Part shown: positions 2,147-52,458 of the stretch, one piece after another
Layout: every line of letters starts with the position of its first letter
Numbering within the stretch: the stretch's first letter is position 1
NCBI RefSeq assembly: GCF_003790525.1
Contig: NZ_CP033635.1
Length of the DNA: 64,000 nucleotides
Direction: 5' to 3' (one strand)
DNA from: Escherichia coli
GTDB lineage: Bacteria > Pseudomonadota > Gammaproteobacteria > Enterobacterales > Enterobacteriaceae
Translations under genes and position numbers: made by a program
Notes under the pieces: generated by a model
Told to the model about the DNA's origin: nothing
Seen by the model: the letters and a program-made list of their open reading frames with translations, nothing else
The model's database searches: none

Positions 2147-3685
2147 TTATTGCAAATCTGCGTCTTCAAAGCTGAAGCCGGTGTCTGGCATGATCCAAAA
2201 ACCGGTCAGGTTTTTACTGTGTGCCGACACCAGTTTTTCTACCACCAGCGGGATCCACGGCGACTCTTGCCAGATGATATCCTGCGCCGCCTTATATAAA
2301 CGGGTCTTTTCCGCCGGATCATTAGTTTTTAGTGCCTGAGCCAGGAAGTCATCCACCTGTTTATTGCTGTAAAACGCGGTATTAAACAGCGTTGGTGGCC
2401 AGTTTTGCGAGGCAAACAGCGGCGATAGTGCCCAGTCAGCTTCGCCGGTTGAAGCCGACCAGCCAGTGTAGAACATCCGCACGCCGCTCTCTTTTTGCCC
2501 TTTACCTTCGACTTCTGCCGCCCGCTGTCCGGCATCCATCGCAGTCACCTGGGCTTTAATCCCGACCTGCGCTAACTGCTGCTGGGTAAATTGCAGCACT
2601 TTCTGCGCGGTGCTGTGGTTATGTGACGACCACAGCGTGGTACTGAAACCGTTGGGATATCCCGCCTCTTTCAGTAATTCGCGCGCTTTCACTGGATCGT
2701 AAGGCCACGGTTTATAACTTTGCGCATAGGCGATACTCGGCGGTACCACACCAGTAGCTGGCGTTGCATAGCCCGCGAAGGCCACTTTCACCAGCGCCGG
2801 GCGGTTAATGGCGTAATTCAGCGCCTCACGGACCTTCGGGTTATCGAACGGCTTTTGCGTCACGTTCATACTGATATAACGCTGCATAATTGACGGACTG
2901 GCCATCAACTCGATATTTTTGTTTTTCTCCAGCAATGCGGCCTGCTCGTAAGGAATGGGGAAAGCAAACTGCGCTTCACCGGTTTGTAGCATTGCCGCGC
3001 GGGTGTTGTTATCCGCAACCGGACGCCAGGTTATGCTGTCCAGTTTGGGCAATCCTGGCTGCCAGTAACCCGCGAATTTTTTCACCTTCACAAAATCGGT
3101 CTGATTCCAGGTATCCAGTTCATACGGCCCGGTTCCCACCGGATGAAAACCAATATCCTTGCCATATTTTTCCAGCGCTGCCGGCGAAATCATCGCGGTC
3201 GCCGGATGGGCAAGAATATTAATAAACGCTGAGAACGGCTGTTTGAGGGTAATCTTTACCGTTGTTGGATCGATCGCTTCCGTTTTGGCAATATTCTTAT
3301 ACAGGTTGTAGCGTTTAAGATGATTCGCCGGATCGCTGGCCCGGTCCAGATTCGCTTTTACCGCCGCTGCGTTGAAGTCGGTTCCATCCTGGAATTTAAT
3401 TCCTTCCCGCAGTTTCACGGTGTAAGTAAGGCCGTCATCGGAAACGGTATAACTCTCCGCCAGCACGTTTTTCAGTTTCATCTCTTTATCCAGACCGAAC
3501 AGCCCCTGGTAAAACGATTTCGCTACGGCCTGAGATAACGTGTCATTCGCGTCATATGGATCGAGCGTGGTGAAGTTCGATCCTACCGCCACCACCACAT
3601 CTTTGGCAGCGAATGCACAAGATGCCATCAACGCTGTCGCAATGCCCAGCGCCACTAACCCACTACGGTGTACAGCTCTTGCCAT
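2147..3685 (-). CDS. gsiB: glutathione-binding periplasmic protein GsiB
   Basis: ORF 2147..3952 trimmed to internal Met 90 ([26 protein letters not shown] signal peptide), giving 512 aa; the longer ORF is an in-frame extension that would overlap gsiA. Confidence 0.9.
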
Positions 3686-3704
3686 TTTATTCTCCGCCTG
3701 AATG

Positions 3705-5576
3705 TTATCTACGCATGAATGCGTATTCTGATTGTGGTTGTGCGACGTAATGCCCCGGCCCGACGCATTGCAACGAGACGGCTGCAACCTCTTCGCCACG
3801 CAGATGAATATTGCTGGGAAGATCGTCCGACAGCAGTACACGCTGCGGTCGTTGTCGGGACGGTTCAGCGACCGGAACTGCCGCCAGTAATTTACGCGTA
3901 TAAGGATGCTGCGGGTTTTCGAAGACCGCGCGCCGTGGACCAATTTCAACAATTTGCCCGAGATACATCACCGCCACACGATGACTAATCCGCTCTACCA
4001 CGGCCATATCGTGGGAGATAAACAGATACGCAATGCCGAAATCACGCTGGAGATCGAGCAACAAGTTGATAATCTGCCCGCGAATAGAAACATCCAGCGC
4101 CGAGACGGCTTCGTCGGCAATGATCACTTTTGGATTCAATGCCAACGCGCGAGCAATGCAGATGCGCTGGCGCTGACCGCCGGAAAACTCATGCGGGTAA
4201 CGCCAGGCATGTTCAGGTAACAGGCCCACGCGCTCCAGCAACCACGCAACACGTGCAGCCGCTTCTTTACCTGGCAATAAACCGTGTACGCGCAGCGGTT
4301 CGATAATCGAATCACCGATGGTCTGACGTGGGTCCAGCGAAGCGTAAGGGTCCTGAAAAATAAACTGAATATCGCGGCGCAATGCCTGAAGTTTACCGGA
4401 TGACAAGGTATCGATTCGCTGACCGTTAAAGATAATTTCGCCGCCCTGCGATTCGACCAGGCGCAGCAACGCCCGCCCGGTAGTGGATTTACCGCTGCCA
4501 GACTCGCCCACCAGCGATAGCGTTTCACCAGGCCAGAGATCAAAACTGACTTTCTCAACGGCATGCACTTCCCGCGTTACGCGATTCAACAAACCGCTGC
4601 GCAAAGGGAAACGGGTGACCAGATTACGCACCCGTAAAACAGGTTCGCCATCCACCACCGTTTTCTGCTCGATGGGTGGCTCCTGTTTCGCTGGATGTTC
4701 AAGCGATATCAACGGGAAACGTCGGGGATAATCTAACCCTTTCATCGCACCAAGTTGCGGAACAGCAGCTAACAGCGCACGGGTATAAGGATGTTGCGGT
4801 GCATGAAAAATCTGTTCGACGCTACCCGTTTCCACCGCCTCGCCCTGATACATCACCAGAACCCGATCGGCAATCTCTGCCACCACGCCCATATCGTGAG
4901 TGATAAAGATAACGCCCATCGACATCTCTTTTTGCAATACTTTGATTAATTGCAGGATCTGCGCCTGAATAGTGACATCCAGCGCGGTGGTTGGCTCATC
5001 GGCAATCAGCACCGCCGGGCAGCATGACAGCGCCATCGCAATCATCACTCGCTGGCGCATCCCGCCAGAGAGTTGATGCGGATAACGTGAAAGAATGGTT
5101 TGTGCCTCCGGAATGCGTACCTGATCCAGCATCCGCTTCGCCTCGACCATCGCTTCTTCACGACTGGCGTTCTGATGCAGACGAATTGATTCGGCAATCT
5201 GTTCACCCACAGTAAATACCGGGTTCAGCGATGTCATCGGTTCCTGAAATATCATCGCCATATCCGCACCGCGCACATGGCGCATTTGTGCAGCGCTCTG
5301 CTCGCTAAGTTCAATCACTTCGCGACTGCGCCGCCGCAACAGCATTTTATCGCACTGTACTAAACCGCCCGCCTGTTCCAACAGACGCATCAATGCCAGC
5401 GCAGTCACTGACTTACCGGAGCCGGATTCGCCAACAATTGCCAGCGTCTCACCGCGTTGCAGGCTAAAAGAGAGATTGCGGACCGCAGCTATTTTCTGCT
5501 GGTCCTGCATAAAGGCAATATTCAGATTTTCAACCGCCAGCACATCACCGGCATCAAGTTCATCACTGTGTGGCAA
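3705..5576 (-). CDS. gsiA: glutathione ABC transporter ATP-binding protein GsiA (two fused ABC ATPase domains)
   Basis: Two Walker A motifs (GESGSGKS twice). Conserved N-terminus (L/M)PHSDELD begins at a TTG codon at 5576, 36 codons inside the ORF-track start; overlaps iaaA 3-prime end by 14 nt. Confidence 0.88.
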
Positions 5577-38918: not shown

Positions 38919-39284
38919 ATGATTGATGTCTTAGGGCCGGAGAAACGCAGACGGCGTACCACACAGGAAAAGATCGCAATTGTTCAGCAGAGTTTTGAAC
39001 CGGGAATGACGGTCTCCCTTGTAGCCCGGCAACACGGTGTGGCAGCCAGCCAGCTATTTCTCTGGCGCAAGCAATACCAGGAGGGAAGTCTTACTGCTGT
39101 GGCCGCAGGAGAACAGGTCGTTCCTGCCTCTGAACTTGCTGCTGCCATGAAGCAGATTAAAGAACTCCAGCGCCTGCTCGGCAAAAAAACGATGGAAAAT
39201 GAACTCCTCAAAGAAGCCGTTGAATATGGACGGGCAAAAAAGTGGATAGCGCACGCGCCCTTATTGCCCGGGGATGGGGAGTAA
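38919..39284 (+). CDS. insC: IS2 transposase OrfA (InsC)
   Basis: [56 protein letters not shown]...; ORF-track ORF trimmed to Met 16. Confidence 0.9.
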
Positions 39285-40147
39285 GCTTAGTCAGCCGTTG
39301 TCTCCGGGTGTCGCGTGCGCAGTTGCACGTCATTCTCAGACGAACCGATGACTGGATGGATGGCCGCCGCAGTCGTCACACTGATGATACGGATGTGCTT
39401 CTCCGTATACACCATGTTATCGGAGAGCTGCCCACGTATGGTTATCGTCGGGTATGGGCGCTGCTTCGCAGACAGGCAGAACTTGATGGTATGCCTGCGA
39501 TCAATGCCAAACGTGTTTACCGGATCATGCGCCAGAATGCGCTGTTGCTTGAGCGAAAACCTGCTGTACCGCCATCGAAACGGGCACATACAGGCAGAGT
39601 GGCTGTGAAAGAAAGTAATCAGCGATGGTGCTCTGACGGGTTCGAGTTCCGCTGTGATAACGGAGAAAAACTGCGAGTCACGTTCGCGCTGGACTGCTGT
39701 GACCGTGAGGCACTGCACTGGGCGGTCACTACGGGCGGCTTCAACAGTGAAACAGTACAGGACGTCATGCCAGGAGCGGTGGAACGCCGCTTCGGCAACG
39801 ATCTTCCGGCGTCTCCAGTAGAGTGGCTGACGGATAATGGTTCATGCTACCGGGCTAATGAAACACGGCAGTTTGCCCGGATGTTGGGGCTTGAACCGAA
39901 GAGCACGGCGGTGCGGAGTCCGGAGAGTAACGGCATAGCAGAGAGCTTCGTGAAAACGATAAAGCGTGACTACATCAGTATCATGCCTAAACCAGACGGG
40001 TTAACGGCAGCAAAGAACCTTGCAGAGGCGTTCGAGCATTATAACGAATGGCATCCGCATAGTGCACTGGGTTATCGCTCGCCACGGGAATATCTGCGGC
40101 AGCAGGCCAGTAATGGGTTAAGTGATAACAGGTGTCTGGAAATATAG
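39242..40147 (+). CDS. insD: IS2 transposase OrfB (InsD), DDE catalytic subunit
   Basis: 301-aa ORF overlapping insC in the -1 frame, as in IS3-family frameshift arrangement. Confidence 0.9.
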
Positions 40148-40473: not shown

Positions 40474-41211
40474 TCATGTACAGCGCTGTACCGGGCAATG
40501 GGTAATACCGGTCACAACCGGTAACCCCAGAGACAATGCAACTGTTTTTAACGCAATATACTGGCCGGATGTATCACCCCGGGCAGCCTGAAAACACCTT
40601 TCCACCCGGCATTGTCCGTCAGCACTTATCACCCGCCATGTCTGTTGCAATAAATCCACCCGTTGCGAACATTCTTCATCAACCGTGGCACTGACCCGTG
40701 GATGGCAAATGCTCGTCTGGCTGAGCAGCAACAGGCATCGCATTGTTGCTCCTCCATGTTGTTCCCGCAACCAGCGTAATACCACCGGTGGTGCTGGACT
40801 GGCCGTGTGATTACGTTCAGTAATACGCTCGTGCACCTGTCGGTAAAAGGAAGTACAGAATGCATGAATCTGTTGTCCGTTGATGTTTCCTTCTGCCGAA
40901 TGGAGTGTGAAGTGGACGGCCAGCAGACGCGGCCAGTGATCCACCGCCTGCTGAATAAAACGCCGGATTTCCACCGGCTCTGAAAGTACGGTTTCGGTTA
41001 TTTGCACGATTTGATCCCCTTGAATGTTGCTGAACCGGTGTCGGTACGCAGGAAAGCACGCCGAGACCGGTACGATGCCTGTTACAGCGAAGAACGAGGA
41101 ATGACAGACGGGGGCAGCAGGTCGCCAGCACCAGGGACAGGGCTGATTTCCACAATACCAACGCTGGTATTTTGCACATTGCCAGCGTACCGGCATTACA
41201 ACACGTTTCAT
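40474..41211 (-). CDS. hypothetical protein, weakly YagK/YfjJ-like (third paralog)
   Basis: 259-aa ORF trimmed to Met 15; central segment RLLAVHFTLHSAEG... resembles the RVDLRFP-type region of the two adjacent YagK/YfjJ-like proteins; competing frames exist. Confidence 0.4.
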   Translation of the reverse strand: MKRVVMPVRWQCAKYQRWYCGNQPCPWCWRPAAPVCHSSFFAVTGIVPVSACFPAYRHRFSNIQGDQIVQITETVLSEPVEIRRFIQQAVDHWPRLLAVHFTLHSAEGNINGQQIHAFCTSFYRQVHERITERNHTASPAPPVVLRWLREQHGGATMRCLLLLSQTSICHPRVSATVDEECSQRVDLLQQTWRVISADGQCRVERCFQAARGDTSGQYIALKTVALSLGLPVVTGITHCPVQRCT

Positions 41212-41432
41212 GCTGCTGCCCCTCGTGATGCCTCGATTCGTTGCTGCATCCACTGCTCCACTTCACTTTTGTACCAGCGGCTGCTGCGCCCCAGTTTGAT
41301 GGGTTTAGGGAAATGGCCTTCACTGATCAGCTTGTAAAACCATTTGTCGGTCATACCAGTGAAGCTGGTGATGTAGTTCATGTCGATCAGGGGATCGTCG
41401 GCACGCAGCAATACGCTGTCGTGACCTGTCAT
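41208..41432 (-). CDS. alpA: AlpA-family (P4 Vis-like) transcriptional regulator
   Basis: Small ORF with FTGMTDKWFYKLISEGHFPKPIKLGRSSRWYKSEVEQWM, the AlpA/Vis HTH signature; start codon uncertain (Met 5 or Met 22). Confidence 0.7.
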   Translation of the reverse strand: MTGHDSVLLRADDPLIDMNYITSFTGMTDKWFYKLISEGHFPKPIKLGRSSRWYKSEVEQWMQQRIEASRGAAA

Positions 41433-41512
41433 TGAGGTCAACATGGTCAGAATGTCCTCTGTGAGATTTATGAATGTTGGGCAAATGCGGGTGAATCTGC
41501 TGAGCTGAGCTT

Positions 41513-42115
41513 TCAGAGCTGGCCTGCTACGGGATACCAGGGATTACCGGCGAGGTAACGGGCTTCCGGATCGCGCACACCACGACGATCGCGGGCGAAA
41601 TCACTGAACGCCCATATCAGCTCTTTGAGTCTCTCTTCGCAGTCCGGTGAACAACTGTCCAGCACCACATCCCGGGTTATCTGTTTCTGGTACGGTGCCG
41701 CTTCACCCGGTGAGGCGAAGCCCAGCACGTTGCTCCAGGCATCCAGAATCAGCCGATCCAGTTCAGGGCCGTCGAAATACTCCTGCCTGACGCACAGCAC
41801 CACGTGGTATTCCGGCTTTTCAGGATGACGTGTCAGGAGCCAGCAGAGGTCACGTCCGGGGGTTGCATTCATCAGGTCACTGACGGTTTCAATAAAGGCC
41901 ATACCGAACCAGGTCCTGCGGCTGCTGAAGGTATTATCGGGTTCCCACGGCAGACGAAGCAGGATACGTCGTATCCGGGAGCCGGACTGCTCACGCAGCG
42001 CACGGTCAAGAACGCCAATAACTTTGTTCTGATACGAGGGCCAGAAGGGTGCCATGCTGTCGTCGAAATAAGAGAAAGTATTCACAGGATATGCTCCGTT
42101 ATGCGCAGCCCACAA
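41513..42115 (-). CDS. YagK/YfjJ-family protein (inovirus Gp2-like domain)
   Basis: 200-aa ORF, TTG start; island-associated family typically next to alpA. Confidence 0.6.
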   Translation of the reverse strand: MWAAHNGAYPVNTFSYFDDSMAPFWPSYQNKVIGVLDRALREQSGSRIRRILLRLPWEPDNTFSSRRTWFGMAFIETVSDLMNATPGRDLCWLLTRHPEKPEYHVVLCVRQEYFDGPELDRLILDAWSNVLGFASPGEAAPYQKQITRDVVLDSCSPDCEERLKELIWAFSDFARDRRGVRDPEARYLAGNPWYPVAGQL

Positions 42116-42417
42116 CGCGTCCTGCCCGGGGATGGATGGGCTGACGGGTTACAGGCTGCGGATGAGGTTGATGGAACAGGTGAAGAACCGACGCTGAGCG
42201 GGAATATCAGGGAAGAACATTCAGGGTGAATGAACTCCGTTGACTTCGGTTCACATCATTAAGCAGGGCGGTAAGGTTTTACCGACAGATTGTTTCCGGG
42301 TGCGGAAGCAGATACCGCTGCTGACTTCATGACGGGTTATCAGAATACGGGATAAGGGCATTGGCTGACTCTCTTACCGTGGCATAAGTTCAGGTACCGG
42401 ATACCGTTTTACCGACC

Positions 42418-43149
42418 TCACCTGCCATCCAGCAAACGCCCCGGCCCACGGCTGCAACCATAATTACGCTGACCGGAACCATTATGCTGCTTCGTTTTAT
42501 TTTTCACGAGATAACTGGCTCTGTTCCTGGCTTTCTGCATCGCTGCCACATCACCACGCTTGATCCAGAGAACAGCGGCTTCACCCGGCTTTTTTTCTGA
42601 AGCCTTCCTGGTATCAGAACATCCACCCGACAAAGGCGTGTCATCGGAAGAAGGGCGAGCATCAGACGATGCTGGTTTACGAAAAGGCTTCCACCTGGAA
42701 AAATGGACCAGGCCATCGCCTTGCCAGGGCTCAAGATGCAGAGCGCTGCACCATGCCTCCTGGATCATCGCCGCCAGCGAAGACGGTTCGCTGAAATCCC
42801 CGAGCGAGCACCAGGTATCTTTGTTGAGCAGCAATATCACGTGATAATGTTTCCTGTTTTCTTCCTCTCCGAACTCCCGGCACCAGAAATAACGCAGGCT
42901 GGTTGCATGCACACGCTGACTGGCACGTCGCTTATGCTGCTGGTAAGCCTGGATTTTGGCTTTCAGGGATTCGAAAAAACGAGAAATCACCGCTGAATCC
43001 GGATCGGGATCCATGATGGTGACAGGCATATACTCAGGGAAACGTAAATCCACCCGGATTAACGAGACGGCACGGTGCTGCGACAGGGCACTGTCGAGAA
43101 GGCTGTCAAAACGGGATAACCAGTAAGCATTGTGTATTGGTTGATTCAT
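42418..43149 (-). CDS. YagK/YfjJ-family protein (inovirus Gp2-like domain)
   Basis: 243-aa ORF; ...SLIRVDLRFPEY... motif; paralog of 41513..42115. Confidence 0.65.
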   Translation of the reverse strand: MNQPIHNAYWLSRFDSLLDSALSQHRAVSLIRVDLRFPEYMPVTIMDPDPDSAVISRFFESLKAKIQAYQQHKRRASQRVHATSLRYFWCREFGEEENRKHYHVILLLNKDTWCSLGDFSEPSSLAAMIQEAWCSALHLEPWQGDGLVHFSRWKPFRKPASSDARPSSDDTPLSGGCSDTRKASEKKPGEAAVLWIKRGDVAAMQKARNRASYLVKNKTKQHNGSGQRNYGCSRGPGRLLDGR

Positions 43150-44722
43150 GATGAGAGATCTCCGTTGATTTGGATTGACTTCACATCATTAATCACCGCG
43201 GTAAAACTTTACGGCATCATGTCATTAAGCAATGCTACAACTCTCTGATTAAGAGTGATTGAAACGGAACAAACCATCCCGGAACGAAAAGATAATCCTG
43301 CACACAGCAGCAAAACACGCAACAACAGCATGAATGGATTTAAAAACGACATGGACGACGAGAAAAGCCTGAAGGGAAAAGGATCCACAGAACATTCGAA
43401 CAAAACACCAGAAACGCAACCAGAACGCTTCCTGGCAATGCAAATCAACAACAACACCAAAACCTACAGCTTAATCACACAACTCAATCACGAATGCGAA
43501 TGACACGTTTAAAACCTGTTTACAGATAACGTCGTAACAAGATCATCCCCATCAGAATCGATTTTCTTATCTTGAGTATGTTACTTTTCAACATACCTAA
43601 ACGATTAACCACCGATAACGTAAATCTCATCTGAATCAAAACACCAAAACCAATCATCACGTTTTCGACAGAAGAAAAACACCACATCATGACAAAAAGA
43701 ATGACCTTACACGGAAAAGAAAAACGTCAGGAATCGTTAATGCATACCTCAATCTGATTGTTATCAAAACATCCAGAAAGTCGTTTAACAGAATCGTCGT
43801 AAGCACATCGAAAAGAACGTCAGATCACCTCAGGAAAGTTCGGGTTGATTTAGCGTAAAGATACTTTTCTCAGCTTAACGTCGAAACACAAACCAAAAAC
43901 CACAAACAACCAAAGCTCAGGAAAGGTTAAACGTCACATCAGTAAAATCGAATAGCAGATTGATTGCTTAAACAGGAAGGATTGTTTTACAGCAGCATTA
44001 AACTGATTTAGTTAACGTAAAATCAGAACTGACAGGTTTACTAACTTGGATGTGTATCAGTTCAAAAATGTGTACAGCAATGCGTAATGAAACACATTTA
44101 AAGGAGATTAATGGGAAAAGTGTGTAAATGCGTAAACATGCACTAATGAATCACTGAAGGAATACATACAAAACGACTTAATGAAAACATAAAAGGACCT
44201 AATGGAAAAGGTGTATATAATACCATATCCGACATTCTCAACATCTTAAGACATCCATGCAGACTGAATGTTGGTTTCAGTTTTTCACGGTAAGCATGAA
44301 TCTTTTCTGTTCAAAAGCAGAGCAGATTTACTCTGGAATTATTTTTCTTACTCCGTATTCTGTACAGCAAAAACTTGTGCTAACTTTACAGCAAACCATC
44401 ATAATCAGCGTCTGTAGTCCCATCGCTTTACCCCATGAAAGTGAATCCATATGATGCGAGAGAGATAAGTCATCGTATCCGGTAAACACTGCTAACCATA
44501 ACATAAGATCATTCAGTCAGTTTTATCTCTGAACTGACGATTATGGCATGCTCATTTATATGGCTCACAGAGGAGTGTTATTATCTGTAAGCTTTAATCA
44601 TCAAATCACATGACCATACCAAACTGGCGCTATATCAGCTCATTTGACACCCCTTCCCTTTAGATTTCTTTATGTGTTTTTTGTCGATAATTAAAATGTA
44701 ATATGAATTTAATATTTTTACA

Positions 44723-45946
44723 TCATAAACACCATTTAAAACCATTATCCTGAACATCATACAACAATATATTTTTACTAAAGCATGAATTGTATATTTC
44801 TATTAATTCAGGAAAATTATCAGGATTCACCTTTAAATTCACCTGAATGTTACGCCTAATTTCACCCAGCAGTTTTTCATGCGTGAATTTTATTATTTCT
44901 TTATCATAATCTATAAATTCACACATGTTTTTTATGAATTCAAACCCTTTTCCTGTATACAGTTTGATGAATGCCACAAGAGCAAACATTTCAAGATGCA
45001 GCCATAATGCCACGTGAGTTTTTCGCAAAGTATAAAAAATTGAATTCACCTCTTTTTTACTTATTGCTCTTTTGTACTGTGAGTGTGCCAGATTCAGTAG
45101 TGGCAATTCTCTCTCGATAAATGAAAGTGAAAAAGGCGGGTAAATTGATGTCGGAAATATTTTAGGTCTTATGATATTTTCTATTTCCACCATAAATCTA
45201 TCCATAGAAAGAAAATCATTTTCTTTTTTTATTCTGGTATAGAGACCGCCTTTATTTCTTACTGCGACTTTTTTTCGTGCTACCCCCCCCAACACTTCCT
45301 CTAATTGTTTATTTATCTTCGTATCATTAAATACAACCATTCTTCTTATCATCCTGGGAAGGATGATAATATCAGAGCTTGAATCACTTGAACGGTAATT
45401 ATTATTGATCCATGCAACTTCAAGTTGAAGTATCGGAACATTAAATTCTCTGGGGTTAATAACTCTCTGATATTGTTTTTTGTATGCGTTTTTATTAAGA
45501 TATTCTCTGCTGTAGAGAAACTTATAGCAATATAATCTGACAATATCCTTTATGTAAGATTTAAATGAGTCACCTGTAACAGATATATTTTTTCTGCTCA
45601 GTAACTCCTGTGTATTGAGCCATTCCCGTGACCGGAGTACTCCCTTATGAAGACTTTTTCTTACTTGCATTGAACTGCGCAATTGATGTAATATTTTTGC
45701 GTCCTCAACAATTCTCTTTCCCGTTTGATTTCTTGCAGCATCTATTACTCTGTCAAATATCTCCCGGTCCAGACTTTTGTCATATTTACTGATTATACGA
45801 CAAATATTCCTGACCCGACGGTTCTCTTTATTTCGTTTCCATAACTGATAATGATCATCACATAACCTCAGGGCATTTGCCTCATCAAATTCTGAAACAG
45901 GATTGCTGCATTTTTTATTCCGACAGATACCTTTGTTTTTAGCCAT
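44723..45946 (-). CDS. hypothetical protein (407 aa), AT-rich orphan with Cys-rich N-terminus
   Basis: Long uninterrupted ORF in strongly AT-rich DNA; N-terminal CRNKKCSNP...CDDHY suggests a metal-binding motif; no family recognised. Confidence 0.6.
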   Translation of the reverse strand: MAKNKGICRNKKCSNPVSEFDEANALRLCDDHYQLWKRNKENRRVRNICRIISKYDKSLDREIFDRVIDAARNQTGKRIVEDAKILHQLRSSMQVRKSLHKGVLRSREWLNTQELLSRKNISVTGDSFKSYIKDIVRLYCYKFLYSREYLNKNAYKKQYQRVINPREFNVPILQLEVAWINNNYRSSDSSSDIIILPRMIRRMVVFNDTKINKQLEEVLGGVARKKVAVRNKGGLYTRIKKENDFLSMDRFMVEIENIIRPKIFPTSIYPPFSLSFIERELPLLNLAHSQYKRAISKKEVNSIFYTLRKTHVALWLHLEMFALVAFIKLYTGKGFEFIKNMCEFIDYDKEIIKFTHEKLLGEIRRNIQVNLKVNPDNFPELIEIYNSCFSKNILLYDVQDNGFKWCL

Positions 45947-46046
45947 ACTCTTCTTCCCGTCAATGGAAAATTTTTCACGTCCATATTACCTGACTGAGAG
46001 ACCGGATTAATGTGATCCGGTTCAGTGAAATCAACAGGATACCGGT

Positions 46047-46931
46047 ATGTCATTCAGCCATTCTTCCCTTTCCGCACACGTAAAATCACATCTGACCTTT
46101 CTTCCTGAAGAAATACGCCAGAAAATCCTTGAATATCTTCACAGCGTCATTCAGTACGAACCCGTGATTGGCATTATGGGTAAATCCGGTGCCGGAAAAA
46201 GCAGCCTGTGCAATGCCATTTTTCAGTCCCGTGTCTGCGCCACGCATCCACTGAACGGCTGCACCCGTCAGGCTCATCGTCTTACCTTTCAGCCTGGTGA
46301 ACGCAGAATGACGCTCGTCGATCTGCCCGGCACTGGCGAAACACCACAGCATGATCAGGAATACCGGGCACTTTACCGTCAGTTACTGCCCGAACTGGAT
46401 CTGATTATCTGGATCCTGCGTGCTGATGAACGTGCGTATGCTGCCGACATCGCCATGCATCAGTTTTTACTGAATGAAGGTGCCGATCCCTCGCGTTTTC
46501 TGTTTGTTCTCAGCCATGCTGATCGCATCCACCCGGCTGAAGAATGGAACAGCCAGAGCAACACGCCATCCCGTCAGCAGGAACTCTCACTGGCAACAGT
46601 AACAGCCCGGGTGGCAACCCTGTTCCCTTCATCATTTCCGGTACTCCCCATAGCTGCCCCTGCAGGCTGGAATCTTCCGGCATTTGTGTCACTGATGATC
46701 CACGCCCTGCCACCACAGGCAACCAGCACGGTTTATTCGCATATCCGGAATGAAAAGCGCACTGCGCAGGATCAGCAACACGCACAGCAGGCTTTTGGTG
46801 ACGCCATCGGCCAGAGCTTTGACGCGGCCATTGCCCGGTTCAGCTTTCCGGCCTGGATGCTGCAGCTTCTGCGTAAAGCCCGTGATCGCATTATCCGCCT
46901 GCTGGTCACACTGTGGGATCGCCTGTTCTGA
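46047..46931 (+). CDS. YfjP/YeeP/YkfA-family GTPase (CP4-type island protein)
   Basis: 294-aa ORF with P-loop GKSGAGKSS and DLPG switch motif. Confidence 0.8.
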   Translation: MSFSHSSLSAHVKSHLTFLPEEIRQKILEYLHSVIQYEPVIGIMGKSGAGKSSLCNAIFQSRVCATHPLNGCTRQAHRLTFQPGERRMTLVDLPGTGETPQHDQEYRALYRQLLPELDLIIWILRADERAYAADIAMHQFLLNEGADPSRFLFVLSHADRIHPAEEWNSQSNTPSRQQELSLATVTARVATLFPSSFPVLPIAAPAGWNLPAFVSLMIHALPPQATSTVYSHIRNEKRTAQDQQHAQQAFGDAIGQSFDAAIARFSFPAWMLQLLRKARDRIIRLLVTLWDRLF

Positions 46932-47116
46932 ATTTCCCCGCTTTTTGACCGGCACAGACGATGACCAGGGAACGCATTTCCGGCGGCTTTACCACAATGC
47001 TGAAGGGCTTTTGGTAAACCTCATTCATTTCATCCATCAGGCAGCGTCTTCTCCGGGAGATGCGGCTTTTTCATTGATTACGTCAGTCAGTCTTAACCAC
47101 TGATAAGGAGCAAAGT

Positions 47117-47935
47117 ATGCGATTAGCCAGTCGTTTTGGTTATGCGAACCAGATACGCCGTGACCGTCCGCTGACACATGAAGAGCTGATGCACCATGTG
47201 CCCGGGATTTTCGGGGAGGATAAGCACACCTCCCGGAGCCGGAACTATACATACATCCCCACCATCACCGTGCTGGAAAGCCTGCAACGGGAAGGCTTTC
47301 AGCCGTTCTTTGCCTGCCAGACCCGCGTGCGTGACCCGGGACGCCGGGGATACACAAAGCACATGCTGCGTCTGCGCCGTGACGGGGAGATAAACGGACA
47401 GCATGTCCCTGAAATCATCCTGCTCAACTCCCATGACGGCACCTCCAGCTACCAGATGCTGCCGGGTTACTTCCGGTTCGTGTGTCAGAACGGATGTGTC
47501 TGTGGTCAGTCTCTCGGAGAGGTGCGTGTCCCGCACCGGGGAGACGTGGTGGACAGGGTCATTGAAGGGGCTTACGAGGTGGTGGGCGTGTTTGACCGGA
47601 TAGAGGAAAAGCGTGATGCCATGCAGTCACTGATTTTACCACCACCGGCTCGTCAGGCGCTGGCACAGGCCGCCCTGACTTACCGTTATGGTGACGAACA
47701 TCAGCCCGTCACCACCGCCGACATTCTGACACCACGACGCCGGGAGGATTACGGTCAGGACCTGTGGAGTGCTTATCAGACCATCCAGGAGAATATGCTG
47801 AAAGGCGGGATTTCCGGTCGCAGTGCAAAAGGAAAACGTATCCATACCCGGGCCATTCACAGCATTGATACCGATATAAAACTCAACCGCGCATTGTGGG
47901 TGATGGCAGAAACGCTGCTGGAGAGCATGCGCTGA
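47117..47935 (+). CDS. DUF932-family protein (YfjQ-like)
   Basis: 272-aa ORF in the canonical position after the GTPase. Confidence 0.65.
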   Translation: MRLASRFGYANQIRRDRPLTHEELMHHVPGIFGEDKHTSRSRNYTYIPTITVLESLQREGFQPFFACQTRVRDPGRRGYTKHMLRLRRDGEINGQHVPEIILLNSHDGTSSYQMLPGYFRFVCQNGCVCGQSLGEVRVPHRGDVVDRVIEGAYEVVGVFDRIEEKRDAMQSLILPPPARQALAQAALTYRYGDEHQPVTTADILTPRRREDYGQDLWSAYQTIQENMLKGGISGRSAKGKRIHTRAIHSIDTDIKLNRALWVMAETLLESMR

Positions 47936-48016
47936 TGCCGTTTCCCTGAGTGAGGGAATCATTCAGCTTTCGTTCCTGAAAAACACACATTTATTTGTTA
48001 TTTAAGGAGTTATCTC

Positions 48017-48457
48017 ATGAAAACCGTTTCTCAGAATACCCCCACAATTTATTCAGCTACAACACCAGAGAATAATCCGCCTCAGTTGGTTGCCAGCCTC
48101 GTCCCTGATGAACAGCGCATCAGCTTCTGGCCGCAGCATTTTGGCCTCATTCCACAGTGGGTGACCCTGGAGCCCCGTGTCTTCGGCTGGATGGACCGTC
48201 TGTGCGAAGACTACTGCGGTGGTATCTGGAATCTGTACACCCTGAACAACGGCGGCGCATTTATGGCCCCCGAACCGGATGATGATGATGACGAAACATG
48301 GGTACTGTTCAATGCCATGAACGGTAACCGCGCTGAAATGAGCCCGGAAGCCGCCGGCATTGCTGCCTGTCTGATGACGTACAGTCATCATGCCTGTCGT
48401 ACGGAGTGTTATGCCATGACGGTTCATTATTACCGTCTGCGGGATTACGCCCTGTAG
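48017..48457 (+). CDS. antirestriction protein, KlcA/ArdB family (YfjX/YeeR-like)
   Basis: 146-aa ORF with acidic stretch (PEPDDDDDE) and pattern typical of CP4-island antirestriction proteins. Confidence 0.7.
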   Translation: MKTVSQNTPTIYSATTPENNPPQLVASLVPDEQRISFWPQHFGLIPQWVTLEPRVFGWMDRLCEDYCGGIWNLYTLNNGGAFMAPEPDDDDDETWVLFNAMNGNRAEMSPEAAGIAACLMTYSHHACRTECYAMTVHYYRLRDYAL

Positions 48458-48511
48458 CATCCGGAATGCAGCGCCATTATGCGCATCATTGACTGAAAGG
48501 GGGCCGGAACA

Positions 48512-48988
48512 ATGCAACAGATTTCCTTTCTGCCCGGAGAAATGACAACCAGAGAGCGCAGCCTCATTCAGCGGGCCCTGAAAGCCCTGGACCGCCATCT
48601 TCATGAACCCGGCGTGGCCTTCACCTCCACCCGTGCGGCACGGGAATGGCTGATTCTGAACATGGCGGGACTGGAGCGGGAAGAGTTCCGGGTGCTGTAC
48701 CTGAACAACCAGAATCAGCTGATTGCCGGTGAAACCCTCTTCACCGGCACCATCAACCGCACGGAAGTCCATCCCCGGGAGGTGGTTAAACGCGCCCTGT
48801 ACCACAATGCCGCTGCCGTGGTGCTGGCACACAATCATCCGTCCGGTGAAGTCACACCCGGTAAGGCAGACCGGCTTATCACTGAACGTCTGGTACAGGC
48901 ACTGGCCCTGGTGGATATCCGGGTGCCGGACCATCTGATAATCGGTGGCAGCCGGGTGTTCTCCTTTGCCGAACACGGTCTGCTTTAA
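48512..48988 (+). CDS. RadC-like JAB/MPN domain protein (YfjY/YeeS/YkfG-like)
   Basis: 158-aa ORF with JAMM-like HNHPSGEVTPGKAD motif. Confidence 0.8.
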   Translation: MQQISFLPGEMTTRERSLIQRALKALDRHLHEPGVAFTSTRAAREWLILNMAGLEREEFRVLYLNNQNQLIAGETLFTGTINRTEVHPREVVKRALYHNAAAVVLAHNHPSGEVTPGKADRLITERLVQALALVDIRVPDHLIIGGSRVFSFAEHGLL

Positions 48989-49077
48989 TCCGTCACCGTC
49001 ACAACCACCTTCATATTGTCACTTCAGTTTCTCTTTCTCAGCTGTTTCTCACTTTCACATTCAGGAGGACTGTTCTC

Positions 49078-49299
49078 ATGAAAATCGTCACCCGTGGTGA
49101 AGCCATGCGCGTTCACCGTCAGTATCCGTCATCCCGTCTTTTTCCGTTCTGCACCGGTAAGTACCGCTGGCACGGCGGCACTGAGGCGTATACCGGTCGT
49201 GAAGTGCAGGATATCCCCGGCGTACTGGCCGTGTTTGCCGAACGCCGCAAGGACAGTTTTGGCCCGTATGTCCGGCTGATGAGCGTCACCCTGAACTGA
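49078..49299 (+). CDS. DUF987-family small protein (YeeT/YpjJ-like)
   Basis: 73-aa ORF, MKIVTRGEAMRVHRQYP...; canonical position upstream of the antitoxin. Confidence 0.65.
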   Translation: MKIVTRGEAMRVHRQYPSSRLFPFCTGKYRWHGGTEAYTGREVQDIPGVLAVFAERRKDSFGPYVRLMSVTLN

Positions 49300-49309
49300 G
49301 TCAGTGGAG

Positions 49310-49960
49310 ATGCTGATGAGCAGCATTATCACCACCACCGTGTATACGCTGAATGAACTTTCCGCCACAGCACGGGAAAAAGCCCGCGGCTGGTACCGTC
49401 AGCATCATGCTGACAGCCGCTGGTATGAAAACGTGTATGAGGACTTCAGGGCGGTCTGTGAGATTGTCGGGATTGTCCTCCGCCAGCGTGTTATCCGGCT
49501 CAGCAGCGGCAGGTTTATGGAAGAGCCGTGCATCTGGTTCAGCGGATTCTGCAGCCAGGGGGACGGAGCCTGTTTTGAAGGGCGCTGGCACTGGCAGCCG
49601 GCAACAGCCAGGCGAGTCCGGGAATATGCCCCGCAGGACCGTGAGCTTCATCGTATCACGGATGCCCTGCAGGCGGTGCAGAAGCATAACTTCCGGCAGT
49701 TACAGGCTGAAATCCGTCACCGGGGACGCTACTGCCATCCGTACAGCATGGATATCACCGTCACCCGGGACAGCCCGACCGGACAGGCAATGACAGCCGG
49801 CGCGGAAACCGTTGTCTGTGACGCCCTGCGGGACCTGGCCTTCTGGTTATACAGTCAACTGGAAAACGAGTACGACTGGCTGACCTCAGATGACGCCGTG
49901 GATGAGGCGCTTCTCATCAACGGATACACCTTCACCGAAGCCGGTCTGCGCGCCGGCTGA
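49310..49960 (+). CDS. hypothetical protein (~216 aa)
   Basis: ORF in a GC-rich segment between DUF987 and the antitoxin; start ambiguous (GTG 49304, ATG 49310 or 49316); no family recognised. Confidence 0.5.
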   Translation: MLMSSIITTTVYTLNELSATAREKARGWYRQHHADSRWYENVYEDFRAVCEIVGIVLRQRVIRLSSGRFMEEPCIWFSGFCSQGDGACFEGRWHWQPATARRVREYAPQDRELHRITDALQAVQKHNFRQLQAEIRHRGRYCHPYSMDITVTRDSPTGQAMTAGAETVVCDALRDLAFWLYSQLENEYDWLTSDDAVDEALLINGYTFTEAGLRAG

Positions 49961-50010
49961 CCCGTCATTGTTAAAACCATTCTTAACCGATTATCAGTGA
50001 GGACTTTATC

Positions 50011-50388
50011 ATGTCAGACACACTCACCGGGACAACGCATCCCGACGACAACAGCGACCGCCCCTGGTGGGGGCTGCCCTGCACCGTGACGCCCTGTTTC
50101 GGTGCCCGTCTGGTGCAGGAGGGTAACCGCCTGCATTACCTTGCAGACCGCGCCGGCATCAGAGGCCGGTTCAGCGACGCAGATGCGTACCACCCGGACC
50201 AGGCCTTTCCGCTGCTGATGAAACAGCTGGAACTCATGCTCACCAGTGGTGAACTCAGTCCCCGCCATCAGCATACCGTCACACTGTATGCGAAAGGGCT
50301 GACCTGCGAAGCCGACACCCTCGGCAGTTGTGGTTACGTGTATATCGCCATTTATCCGACACCGGCAACACCCGGAACCACCGCATAA
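50011..50388 (+). CDS. type IV antitoxin, CbeA/YeeU/YfjZ family
   Basis: 125-aa ORF; ...[20 protein letters not shown]...[19 protein letters not shown] matches the YeeU family. Confidence 0.85.
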
Positions 50389-50434
50389 CCCCGGACAGCA
50401 CTTCTTTATCACCACCTGTTACAGAGTACTTAAG

Positions 50435-50809
50435 ATGAAAACATTCCCCGACACACATGTACGGGCAACATCGCGCTGCCCGTCTCCGGTTGAAATCTGG
50501 CAGACACTGCTCACCCGGTTGCTGGACCAGCACTACGGCCTCACGCTGAATGACACACCGTTCGCCGATGAACGTGTGATTGAACAGCATATTGAGGCAG
50601 GTATTTCACTGTGTGATGCGGTGAACTTTCTCGTGGAAAAATACGCACTGGTGCGTACCGACCAGCCGGGATTCAGTGCCTGCACCCGCTCTCAGTTAAT
50701 CAACAGCATTGATATCCTCCGGGCCCGCCGGGCAACCGGCCTGATGACCCGCAGCCACTACCGAATGGTGAGCAACATCACCCTGGGTAAACACTGTGAG
50801 GTGAAATGA
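50435..50809 (+). CDS. type IV toxin, CbtA/YeeV/YpjF family (cytoskeleton-binding)
   Basis: Trimmed to [48 protein letters not shown]..., near-identical in pattern to CbtA. Confidence 0.85.
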
Positions 50810-51297
50810 TGAAACTGTCCCTGACGCTGGAAGCAGACAGCGTTAACGTCCGGGCACTGAACATGGGGCGCATTGTCGCTGACGTCGATGGTGTTAATCT
50901 CGCTGAACTGATTAACGTGGTCTGCGATAACGGCTGTTCCCTTCGTGTTGTTGATGAATCTGACCGGACCTCAGCAGACTGCATGCCACCATTTACTGCC
51001 CTTACCGGCATACGCTGCAGTACCGCACATATCACGGAACAGGACAATGCCTGGCTGTACTCGCTGTCGCATCAGACGAATGACAACGGCGAATCAGAAT
51101 GGATTCATTTTACAGGCAGCGGATATCTGTTACGTACTGATGCGTGGTCGTACCCGGCTCTGCGGCTTAAACGCCTGGGGCTGTCAAAAACCTTCCGCCG
51201 TCTGGTTGTCACACTTATCCGGCGTTATGGCGTCAGTCTCATTCATCTGGATGCCGGCGCTGAATGTCTGCCGGGTTTACCCACTTTCGACTGGTAA
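50806..51297 (+). CDS. hypothetical protein downstream of toxin (YeeW-position protein)
   Basis: 163-aa ORF, ATGA overlap with the toxin stop. Confidence 0.5.
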
Positions 51298-51316
51298 CCG
51301 GGACAAAAGACACCGT

Positions 51317-51514
51317 ATGAAATCATTAACCACAGAAACGGCACCGGATATTCTGATTGCGTGGCTGCAGGACAATATCGACTGCGGCTCCGGCATTATC
51401 TTCGACAACGATGAGGATAAAACGGATTCGGCAGCACTGCTGCCCTGTATCGAACAGGCCAGAGCGGATATCCGCACCCTGCGCCACCTGCAGCTTCAGC
51501 ACCAGAACCGGTGA
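51317..51514 (+). CDS. small hypothetical protein (possibly DUF957-type)
   Basis: 65-aa reading frame from internal ATG of ORF 50945..51514 (MKSLTTETAPDILIAWLQDNIDCG...). Confidence 0.4.
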   Translation: MKSLTTETAPDILIAWLQDNIDCGSGIIFDNDEDKTDSAALLPCIEQARADIRTLRHLQLQHQNR

Positions 51515-51609
51515 GTCTCACTCATCATCTCACTCACCACGATTCATTCCCCTGACGCCAGTCCGAATACGGCTGGCGTTTTCATTTATAAACCACAAGG
51601 AAAAATGTA

Positions 51610-52458
51610 ATGTCTGATATCACAATCCCTTATCCGGAAGCGGTCAACGGACATACGGACGTTATCTGCTCCACAGATATCCGGCACGTTGTGACGGTAC
51701 GGAATGAAGCACTGCAACAAACCGAAAGGGTTATCCGGCAACTGGCAGAAATCTCAGCAATGACAGAAAGCATAGGCGGTAAAACGGCGCGGGACTGGGC
51801 CGTGAAACAGGATTTTCGCTGTGGCTGCTGGCTGATGGAAAAACCGGAAACCGCAATGAAAGCCATCACCCGGAACCTTGACCGTGAAATCTGGCGTGAC
51901 CTGATGCAACGCTCCGGGATGCTGAGTCTGATGGATGCACAGGCGCGTGATGAATGGTACCGTTCACAGGAGGACGATAATTTCCCGGAAATCAGCGAAG
52001 CGAATATCCTGAGCACGTCTGAACAACTGCACCGTAACAGGGATGAAATGGCTGAACGGGGCGTCATCAACCTCTTCAGGGGACTGAGCCGGACGCAAAA
52101 CAGCGGGTCACCCTGTAAATTCGGCAGCAAGATTATCCTCAACAACCTGGTGAAATGGGACTGGTGGGGATTTGGTCTGAACCATGGCCCGCAGGCCGGG
52201 CGGCTTGCCGACCTGGAAAGAATGTTGTATCTGTTCAGTGGTAAACCCATACCCGATTACAGGGACAATATCCTCATTCGTCTGGATGAGCACATCCGGT
52301 CCGTTCAGGGTGAAGCGTGTTATGAAGATGAGATGTTCAGCATCAGATACTTCAGGAAAGGCTCTGCGCATATCACGTTTAAACACCCGGAACTGGTGGA
52401 GAAGCTGAATGCTGTTCTGGCGAAACATTATTCGGTAAAGTTCCATTCTTCTGTATAA
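51610..52458 (+). CDS. hypothetical protein (possibly DUF4942-type), last island gene
   Basis: 282-aa ORF; same strand as the downstream glnP. Confidence 0.55.
   Translation: MSDITIPYPEAVNGHTDVICSTDIRHVVTVRNEALQQTERVIRQLAEISAMTESIGGKTARDWAVKQDFRCGCWLMEKPETAMKAITRNLDREIWRDLMQRSGMLSLMDAQARDEWYRSQEDDNFPEISEANILSTSEQLHRNRDEMAERGVINLFRGLSRTQNSGSPCKFGSKIILNNLVKWDWWGFGLNHGPQAGRLADLERMLYLFSGKPIPDYRDNILIRLDEHIRSVQGEACYEDEMFSIRYFRKGSAHITFKHPELVEKLNAVLAKHYSVKFHSSV

Follow-up and report, generated by a model that had tools for sequence, protein, structure and literature searches.

The gene examined here, 407 codons long, lies in a 64,000-nucleotide stretch of Escherichia coli DNA (contig NZ_CP033635.1, assembly GCF_003790525.1; the whole stretch is called the window) and stands on a genomic island next to the GTPase gene that heads an operon. 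We show that its product belongs to a single family encoded in a hypervariable cassette, of which deeply divergent allelic types have been reshuffled against the near-constant GTPase operon. The protein appears to descend from a zinc-finger HNH endonuclease, and we tentatively regard it as a possible switch or specificity factor for the neighboring operon.

The association with the GTPase gene is a fixed feature of the family. In 17/17 loci with enough context a family member directly adjoins a YfjP-type GTPase gene, in both orientations and down to 21% identity, and these loci hold no second family copy elsewhere. An earlier reading of the window, made without database searches (the sequence-only reading), placed the gene divergently from the GTPase gene across a gap of ~100 bp; the gap is exactly 100 bp, and it measures 94-105 bp in six divergent loci. 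Homologs 26-37% identical to the 407-aa protein are also divergent from a YfjP-like GTPase gene in Klebsiella michiganensis, Citrobacter and three metagenomic contigs, where alpA and then a YagK/YfjJ-like gene follow co-directionally on the other side of the family gene, and the more distant P0039 (21% identity) is co-directional with, and upstream of, its GTPase gene. Using the GTPase alignment against one genome per species we obtained 80 loci, among which only the 5 whose GTPase is at least 52% identical to that of the window carry a family member, always immediately upstream, compared with 0/75 at 44% or less. All examined loci with a GTPase at least 49% identical to the window's carry one.

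Rightward from the GTPase gene come genes for DUF932, antirestriction, RadC, DUF987, CbeA/CbtA, DUF5983, DUF957 and DUF4942, and the other flank holds an 'inovirus Gp2 family' (YagK/YfjJ-like) gene (42418-43149, minus strand), so that the position between a YagK/YfjJ-like gene and the GTPase gene was also correctly called. In the window and all related loci, Gp2/YagK-like and AlpA-like genes lie on one side and the GTPase-DUF932-antirestriction-RadC-CbeA/CbtA series on the other, and the 407-aa gene is a member of the backbone of a CP4-57-like, satellite-like island. Obvious defense cargo (type I restriction-modification, McrBC, TIR, HEPN, ScoMcrA-like) is found beyond the YagK/YfjJ genes or beyond DUF4942. 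This island type was recently described as an uncharacterized satellite-like mobile element with defense cargo, for which rolling-circle replication was proposed; the description does not mention the 407-aa gene (PMC12458937). As a separate observation on the GTPase, its residues 183-286 (the C-terminal third) resemble LeoBC, a PADLOC family of the Eleos dynamin-like defense system, over 93/601 profile positions (E 1.2e-6), a partial similarity by which membership is not established.

Beside this constant partner the family itself varies greatly. An identity matrix gave 94-97% identity among E. coli GTPases and 20-25% among their partner proteins, which in E. coli comprise a 407-aa, a 376-aa and a ~310-aa type. 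The E. coli 407-aa type is 34-37% identical to Citrobacter and Klebsiella partners, where the GTPases are just 51-69% identical, and the E. coli 376-aa type is nearest to a C. freundii form (32%). Partner types do not track the GTPase tree, and because the closest partners stand beside distant GTPases, we regard them as old lineages reshuffled against the GTPase backbone. E. coli loci with ~88% identical GTPase DNA and no megablast match to the 407-aa gene nonetheless contain family members. The 376-aa form (P0041; a 90% cluster with 3400 member sequences) has the zinc finger described below and is cut by IS66 in one genome; the ~310-aa form is without the finger and is accompanied by an extra 269-aa gene. 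This additional gene (3156-3965 in locus L091 and 3145-3954 in L092, both on the plus strand; GC 0.38) is convergent with the ~310-aa partner gene, has no PHROG match and has no counterpart in the window.

Outside the cassette, E. coli islands with other types are homologous to the window, at 74-80% on the left and with a near-identical leader on the right. The left breakpoint lies at ~44360 and the right one at ~45969, ~10 nt left of the CCATATTACC box of the GTPase leader. Discrete, divergent types between conserved flanks, a trait of immunity and master repressors, are thus found at this site. The sequence-only reading had spoken of a variable slot, which is apt for the wider GTPase superfamily, with its unrelated genes at this position, but not for the island lineage of the window, in which the slot does not hold interchangeable cargo because one family fills 17/17 loci.

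Variation of this kind could also mark a conflict gene, an undescribed anti-phage defense, anti-defense or exclusion factor acting alone or with the GTPase and diversified in an arms race, whose HNH-active relatives would be nuclease effectors and whose dead forms would be sensors or adaptors. The extreme allelic diversity beside a conserved neighbor fits such a role, as do relaxed selection (a ratio of nonsynonymous to synonymous substitution rates, dN/dS, of 0.54-0.66 in the central region and 0.52-0.56 in the ~310-aa type), the maintained low GC, the defense cargo carried by the host islands, AbpAB and RnlAB in the equivalent CP4-57 slot, OLD-like ATPases or helicases upstream at some distant GTPase loci, and the partial LeoBC similarity of the GTPase C-terminus noted above. 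However, the 407-aa protein and its relatives have no PADLOC match, the query clade has lost the nuclease motif, and the gene sits in the conserved backbone beside a 'moron' operon rather than among turnover cargo; no island of the GTPase clade lacks it, which is atypical of defense cargo. A conflict role, favored by diversity and island biology, weakened by backbone position and without support from database matches, is to us a doubtful explanation, though one to be taken seriously. The suggestion in the sequence-only reading of a defense or accessory function therefore holds only in its broader sense: the divergence pattern fits a conflict or specificity role, and nothing specific to anti-phage defense was found.

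Database searches place the protein in a small family. The same reading recognized no family, and indeed the 407-aa protein has no significant match in Pfam, NCBIfam, PADLOC, PHROG or the PDB; the label of orphan, on the other hand, is wrong, as homologs occur in Klebsiella, Citrobacter, Trabulsiella, Hafnia and Salmonella. Among 5.8 billion proteins searched there were 16 related clusters, and a HMMER scan of 1.84 billion cluster representatives gave 26 matches, the full-length relatives being 23-37% identical; profile searches brought few extra members. All identifiable hosts and contexts are Enterobacterales (E. coli, K. michiganensis, K. oxytoca, Citrobacter, Trabulsiella, Hafnia), to which structural matches add Salmonella, Serratia, Enterobacter, Providencia, Lelliottia and Kosakonia. 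Foldseek against AFDB50 returned 21 proteins only, every one with a named organism being from Enterobacterales, and several of the remote relatives (15-20% identity, TM ~0.5) are named 'HNH endonuclease'. Pfam was negative also for relatives (16, then 4), sequence and profile searches of the PDB found nothing for the family, and no PADLOC-DB 2.0 family was matched by the 407-aa protein or eight relatives, so that it corresponds to no known defense family there. No homology to a housekeeping or structural family was found. With tblastn, the 407-aa protein had no match in phage and plasmid collections, nor did P0036 in phages. We found no literature on the 407-aa gene or on the function of YfjP. 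The family is small, Enterobacterales-restricted and undescribed. Three candidate assignments were rejected: an NCBIfam rSAM_yydG match (18 bits against a cut-off of 300) and a Pfam Tex match (E 0.16) are noise, and the UniRef name 'Reverse transcriptase' on the K. michiganensis homolog corresponds to no reverse transcriptase family match and no visible reverse transcriptase motif.

That the gene is real and maintained is clear from its composition, distribution and substitution pattern. The open reading frame (ORF; 44723-45946, minus strand) runs for 407 codons with no interruption from an N-terminus reading MAKNKGICRNKKCSNP...LCDDHY. It was rightly described as long, intact and AT-rich beside a GC-richer neighbor, with GC of 0.335 compared with 0.541 for the GTPase gene (46047-46931). 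The AT-rich tract exceeds the gene (~43200-46000); sliding-window GC is 0.30-0.37 over 44250-46000 and rises to 0.50-0.60 beyond both ends of the wider tract. Since stops make up ~7.4% of random codons at the composition of the gene, a frame of this length is not a chance product (~3e-14 by our own arithmetic). Low GC (0.28-0.37) is kept in the 6 orthologs measured, and 3 more diverged members have 0.36-0.45. A near-identical E. coli chromosome has the ORF annotated in RefSeq as a coding sequence (CDS), 'hypothetical protein' WP_042039149.1, and in the 40 matches listed for E. coli genomes it likewise carries a hypothetical-protein CDS annotation. The gene is present in 974/5426 complete E. 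coli genomes, at coverage of at least 80% in 967, and 1065/1066 occurrences are chromosomal. Alleles are not mostly broken: length is unchanged in 38/40 matches sampled evenly down the ranking.

Compared with the UTI89 allele (85% protein identity), dN/dS is 0.30 overall, 0.05 for residues 1-60, 0.54 and 0.66 in the middle and 0.24 for residues 233-407; the neighboring GTPase gene has 0.10-0.21 and the ~310-aa type 0.52-0.56. On these values, overall and by region, the gene is coding and under purifying selection, strongest at both ends. It would therefore be hard to see in it a silent leftover ORF, repressed by H-NS and without current function. H-NS silences AT-rich acquired DNA, the tract is AT-rich and a scan for consensus sigma-70 promoters found no site in the intergenic gap, yet purifying selection and intact maintenance through divergence to 21% protein identity make a silent relic scarcely credible.

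Three parts can be recognized in the protein (Table 1). The zinc-finger ligands C8, C13, C29 and H32 belong to the Cys-rich N-terminus pointed out in the sequence-only reading and are invariant in 16/16 full-length members (alignment A2). Further conserved motifs are SREWxNTQEL, SREYL, LEV, P197 and IRRMV, and the C-terminal domain, for which no fold relatives were recognizable beyond the family, has GGLY, IE..LPL..LA, LE.FA and YNS.FS. The protein is basic, with a pI of 9.7, and ~10 over residues 1-232. An AlphaFold2 model from 21 sequences (pLDDT 78.3, pTM 0.69) predicts a zinc knuckle, then a helix, then a helical linker; these are followed by beta 175-179, beta 193-197 and alpha 198-219 at the site of the HNH motif, and then by an all-helical C-terminal domain.

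The residues at that site point to the ancestry of the family. P0034, P0036, P0039 and the Trabulsiella L013 protein have L-E-[VI]-[SC]-H-x-Y-P-N-x-K-G-G-x-N-x3-N-x-[IL]-I-x-P-x3-N-R, the classical HNH/HNN pattern. The 407-aa protein is without the catalytic His, having Trp179 at the general-base position (end of the first beta strand); this position is Trp, Phe, Tyr or Lys in the query clade, and His is kept solely in P0034, P0036, P0039, L013 and L010. At the structural and metal-ligand positions it has Asp192 and Arg201 where P0034, P0036, P0039 and L013 have Asn and Asn, and in the query and its closest 13 members the key positions are all of this kind (Trp/Phe/Tyr/Lys, Asp, Arg). P0036 matches PHROG 8660 'HNH endonuclease' (E 8.8e-7); taken by itself, its motif segment of 98 residues has five PHROG matches, all to HNH/endonuclease VII families (best E 3.2e-4), and the zinc-finger part of L013 and P0036 matches HNH PHROGs 1271 and 15471. 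The motif segment of the 407-aa protein matched no HNH profile in PHROG. For the full-length protein the best match was to PHROG 5351 (E 0.65), with which the finger by itself reached E 0.075; neither value is significant, and Pfam gave no match. HNH descent was not confirmed by Pfam or PDB searches even with the HNH-intact relatives (including P0036), which had no match in either. From the alignment and the predicted structure we conclude that a zinc-finger HNH endonuclease was probably the ancestor of the family and that the canonical active site appears to have been lost in the query clade, and the 407-aa gene is classified as a domesticated, inactivated zinc-finger HNH protein.

An HNH ancestry raises the question of whether the gene is a free-standing homing endonuclease of the T4 Mob kind that once inserted itself upstream of the GTPase gene and is now in decay, with no island function. 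The HNH ancestry, zinc fingers and low GC, an intergenic location beside a conserved gene in either orientation, the loss of catalytic residues in most clades and the unrelated genes at the same site in other GTPase clades would all be in keeping with this. The gene is nevertheless constrained (dN/dS 0.30; zinc finger 0.05, C-terminal domain 0.24), its non-HNH motifs are conserved down to 21% identity, it is found in 17/17 loci of the GTPase clade rather than sporadically, and intact 407-aa alleles exist in 967 genomes. Because of this purifying selection and the presence in every island of the clade, we consider a decaying homing endonuclease very unlikely.

Of the 100-bp gap between the two genes, the GTPase-proximal ~65 nt are a leader common to YfjP-family GTPase genes, whichever gene lies upstream, with a box (CCATATTACC in the window; AGATATTATC, a palindrome, in most clades) in 59/87 loci, then a hairpin and, in most clades, a T-run. 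Stems at the same place elsewhere differ in sequence (e.g., TCCTGGC-N7-GCCAGGA in Citrobacter), and an imperfect palindrome, ATGGA-N12-TCCAT, spans 45963-45984. As only ~35 nt separate the box from the ATG of the 407-aa gene, the promoter of this gene has to share sequence with the GTPase leader, read on the other strand; when reverse-complemented, the box holds TAATAT, a candidate -10-like hexamer ~35 nt upstream of that ATG. In this locus the 407-aa gene and the main operon are read in opposite directions from one shared control region, an arrangement expected of immunity or master repressors of mobile elements.

The leader itself, ~55-85 nt upstream of the GTPase start (loci L015-L089; 45970-46046 in the window), is built from a box AATAATTTCAGAcAGATATTATC including the palindrome AGATA-T-TATCT, then GTGAAT, the hairpin (36 distinct stem starts), usually a T-run, and TTTCACGCTGAGA-N10-ATG, and its GTGAA and TTCAC elements, on either side of the hairpin, can pair. 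The whole resembles a terminator or attenuator near the promoter, or else a small RNA. Rfam gave nothing in the GTPase leaders, and no consensus came out of RNAalifold on the leaders aligned with MAFFT, because their variable stems fall out of register. AlpA of Pseudomonas is an antiterminator, and by analogy the AlpA-type proteins of the islands might act at this leader.

Our preferred reading, held tentatively and at less than even confidence, is that the 407-aa protein, without catalytic activity, binds DNA as a type-specific switch or specificity factor for the GTPase operon. We count for it the intact alleles in 967 genomes and the purifying selection, the fixed GTPase linkage, the hypervariable cassette, the basic pI, the invariant ligands, the lost HNH residues, the promoter geometry and the low GC. 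The protein would probably no longer cut DNA and would bind nucleic acid through its zinc finger and dead nuclease core, acting at the back-to-back promoter region that it has in common with the GTPase operon, much as an immunity or master repressor does. The C-terminal domain could serve oligomerization or the sensing of a partner or inducer, and the long-term diversification of types may reflect selection for distinct specificities. More specifically, and in our view unlikely in this full form, the cassette could be an Stl-like master repressor or inducer sensor, a domesticated nuclease-dead HNH protein, setting the specificity of a very common class of satellite-like enterobacterial islands. 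If so, the 407-, 376-, ~310-aa and HNH-intact types would decide to which helper, inducer or competitor each island responds, via control of its GTPase/antirestriction/RadC/CbtA operon.

Several observations weigh against a switch. The 407-aa protein, a putative DNA binder, has no helix-turn-helix, and ~400 aa is large for a repressor. Some family forms, such as the ~310-aa types, are without the zinc finger, and the genes of the HNH-intact clade (L005, L013) point the same way as the GTPase gene instead of diverging from it. The conserved leader, with box and hairpin, is also present in islands without the family, so in general the GTPase promoter needs no 407-aa family protein. No operator-like motif recurred more often than chance allows, and the intergenic region has about as many ten-mers in common with the remainder of the window as expected (~14 by our own estimate). 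The switch reading is put forward with caution on account of the finger-less types, the co-directional HNH-intact relatives and the leaders that exist without the family.

The other side of the gene suggests a further role, that of a DNA-processing accessory in island replication or transfer, which would recognize an origin or an oriT and bring in the HUH initiator (YagK/YfjJ, 'inovirus Gp2 family'); its HNH-active relatives would nick DNA themselves. In Klebsiella, Citrobacter and the metagenomic contigs, alpA and a YagK/YfjJ-like gene come next after the gene on the same strand, the ancestry is of the zinc-finger and HNH kind, rolling-circle replication was proposed for the island type (PMC12458937), and in E. 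coli a conserved 1.2-kb non-coding tract lies between the 407-aa gene and the Gp2-like gene. Set against this, the gene switches type while the neighboring spacer and Gp2-like gene remain homologous, through rearrangements the gene stays with the GTPase gene rather than with alpA or the Rep-like gene (a Gp2-like gene and 1.5 kb intervene in E. coli), and the catalytic residues are lost. We judge this role to be improbable. The tract itself (43150-44359) is ~1.2 kb of A+C-rich non-coding DNA upstream of the Gp2/YagK-like gene, with an AT skew of +0.3 to +0.4, GC of 0.35-0.39 and no ORF above 82 aa, in which short AACGTC-containing repeats recur at 43527-43936. It is 74-80% conserved in other E. 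coli islands, different partner types included, and absent from the Klebsiella and Citrobacter loci. Rfam gave nothing here or elsewhere in the AT-rich tract, and the non-coding tract could be an origin, a long leader or a non-coding RNA.

Beyond the clade of the window's GTPase, the slot upstream of the GTPase gene is filled by many unrelated genes. Among loci L015-L089, one uncharacterized family of 285-380 aa stands co-directionally upstream of the GTPase gene in 21, smaller families do so in 6, 4 and 2, and other upstream neighbors are helicases and OLD-like ATPases. The uncharacterized upstream neighbors in these clades are of lower GC, and 7 representatives (including L028, L043, L061 and L046) had no significant PADLOC, NCBIfam or PHROG match. 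The idea of a single superfamily upstream of all GTPases was rejected (hhalign probabilities of 0.5% or less). In CP4-57 of K-12 the slot holds abpBA (yfjK/yfjL), yfjM and rnlAB, which agrees with the sequence-only reading, where yfjK/yfjL and rnlAB were named; yet K-12 YfjP is only 36% identical to the GTPase of the window, so CP4-57 and the window's island are distant relatives. Neither tblastn nor the family HMM found a family member in CP4-57.

Coordinates of the features discussed are collected in Table 1. Collinearity of the window with E. coli HCM-24C-3 is limited to 40476-49340 (96.8%) and 49976-52379 (86%), and an IS3-family transposase-like ORF (39242-40147) lies at the left breakpoint of collinearity, from which we take the left part of the island to be rearranged relative to HCM-24C-3.

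Table 1. Features of the 407-aa gene, its cassette and the adjoining GTPase gene, in window coordinates.
Feature	Coordinates	Strand	Remarks
407-aa gene	44723..45946	-	ATG start; RefSeq WP_042039149.1-like; UTI89 ortholog is UniProt Q1R2M8
Type-specific cassette	44360..45969	.	Approximate; ~1.6 kb: gene, 3' flank and ~23 bp of 5' flank
N-terminal zinc finger	45851..45925	-	C8-x4-C13-x15-C29-x2-H32; dN/dS 0.05 for residues 1-60, the most constrained part of the gene
Predicted degenerate beta-beta-alpha (HNH-like) core	45335..45424	-	Residues 175-204, LEVAW179...D192IIILP...R201RMV; dN/dS 0.66 for 146-232
C-terminal all-helical domain	44726..45250	-	Residues 233-407; dN/dS 0.24
Divergent intergenic region	45947..46046	.	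100 bp; left ~23 bp (to ~45969) partner-type-specific, rest is conserved GTPase leader
CCATATTACC box	45981..45990	.	ATATTAC invariant in eight aligned family-bearing loci; related AGATATTATC boxes in most YfjP-family GTPase leaders
Leader hairpin/palindrome	46001..46021	+	ACCGGAT-N7-ATCCGGT
YfjP-family (MMR_HSR1/Era-like) GTPase gene	46047..46931	+	Heads rightward operon; constant neighbor of the family

In E. coli and its relatives, this island type is among the commonest carriers of cargo for defense, virulence and resistance. The 407-aa gene is a component of its backbone, the 407-aa type alone occurring in ~18% of complete E. coli genomes and sister types in many more, and its cassette is the sole hypervariable element beside an otherwise strongly conserved operon. 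Should the cassette be what sets regulatory or inducer specificity, island activation could be approached through it; should it be a conflict gene, it would define a new family of domesticated nucleases. Either way, a testable role can be offered for many 'hypothetical protein' annotations, including UTI89 Q1R2M8.

Compared with known systems, the 407-aa gene has the same relative position as AbpAB and RnlAB of CP4-57, from the YfjJ-like gene to the GTPase gene, in the same overall island architecture, but these have no sequence relationship to its family. T4 MobA-E are free-standing HNH homing endonucleases; like genes of this type, it is low in GC, has HNH ancestry and lies between conserved genes, with a catalytic motif decayed in many copies, and unlike them it is kept by purifying selection, occurs in all islands of the clade and has its conserved motifs outside the nuclease core. 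Its N-terminal C-x4-C...C-x2-H finger resembles those of the phage HNH endonucleases of PHROG 8660, 1271, 15471 and 5351, its distant members P0034, P0036, P0039 and L013 keep the E-V-S-H...P-N-x-K-G-G...N...N-R of the beta-beta-alpha-Me enzymes, and a beta-beta-alpha element is predicted at the homologous place of the 407-aa protein. It differs from these endonucleases in that the query clade has Trp, Asp and Arg for His, Asn and Asn with no significant HNH profile match, in its 175-residue helical C-terminal domain without known relatives and in its confinement to chromosomal islands. SaPI Stl and lambdoid CI are master or immunity repressors of phage satellites and phages. The 407-aa protein is larger than these, has a zinc finger and an apparently dead nuclease core instead of a helix-turn-helix, and has some relatives encoded co-directionally with the operon, and the comparison is a working analogy, not a claim of membership. 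As with Stl and CI, however, the gene is divergent from the main operon with a short control region between, is low in GC, and belongs to a family of very divergent types set between conserved flanks.

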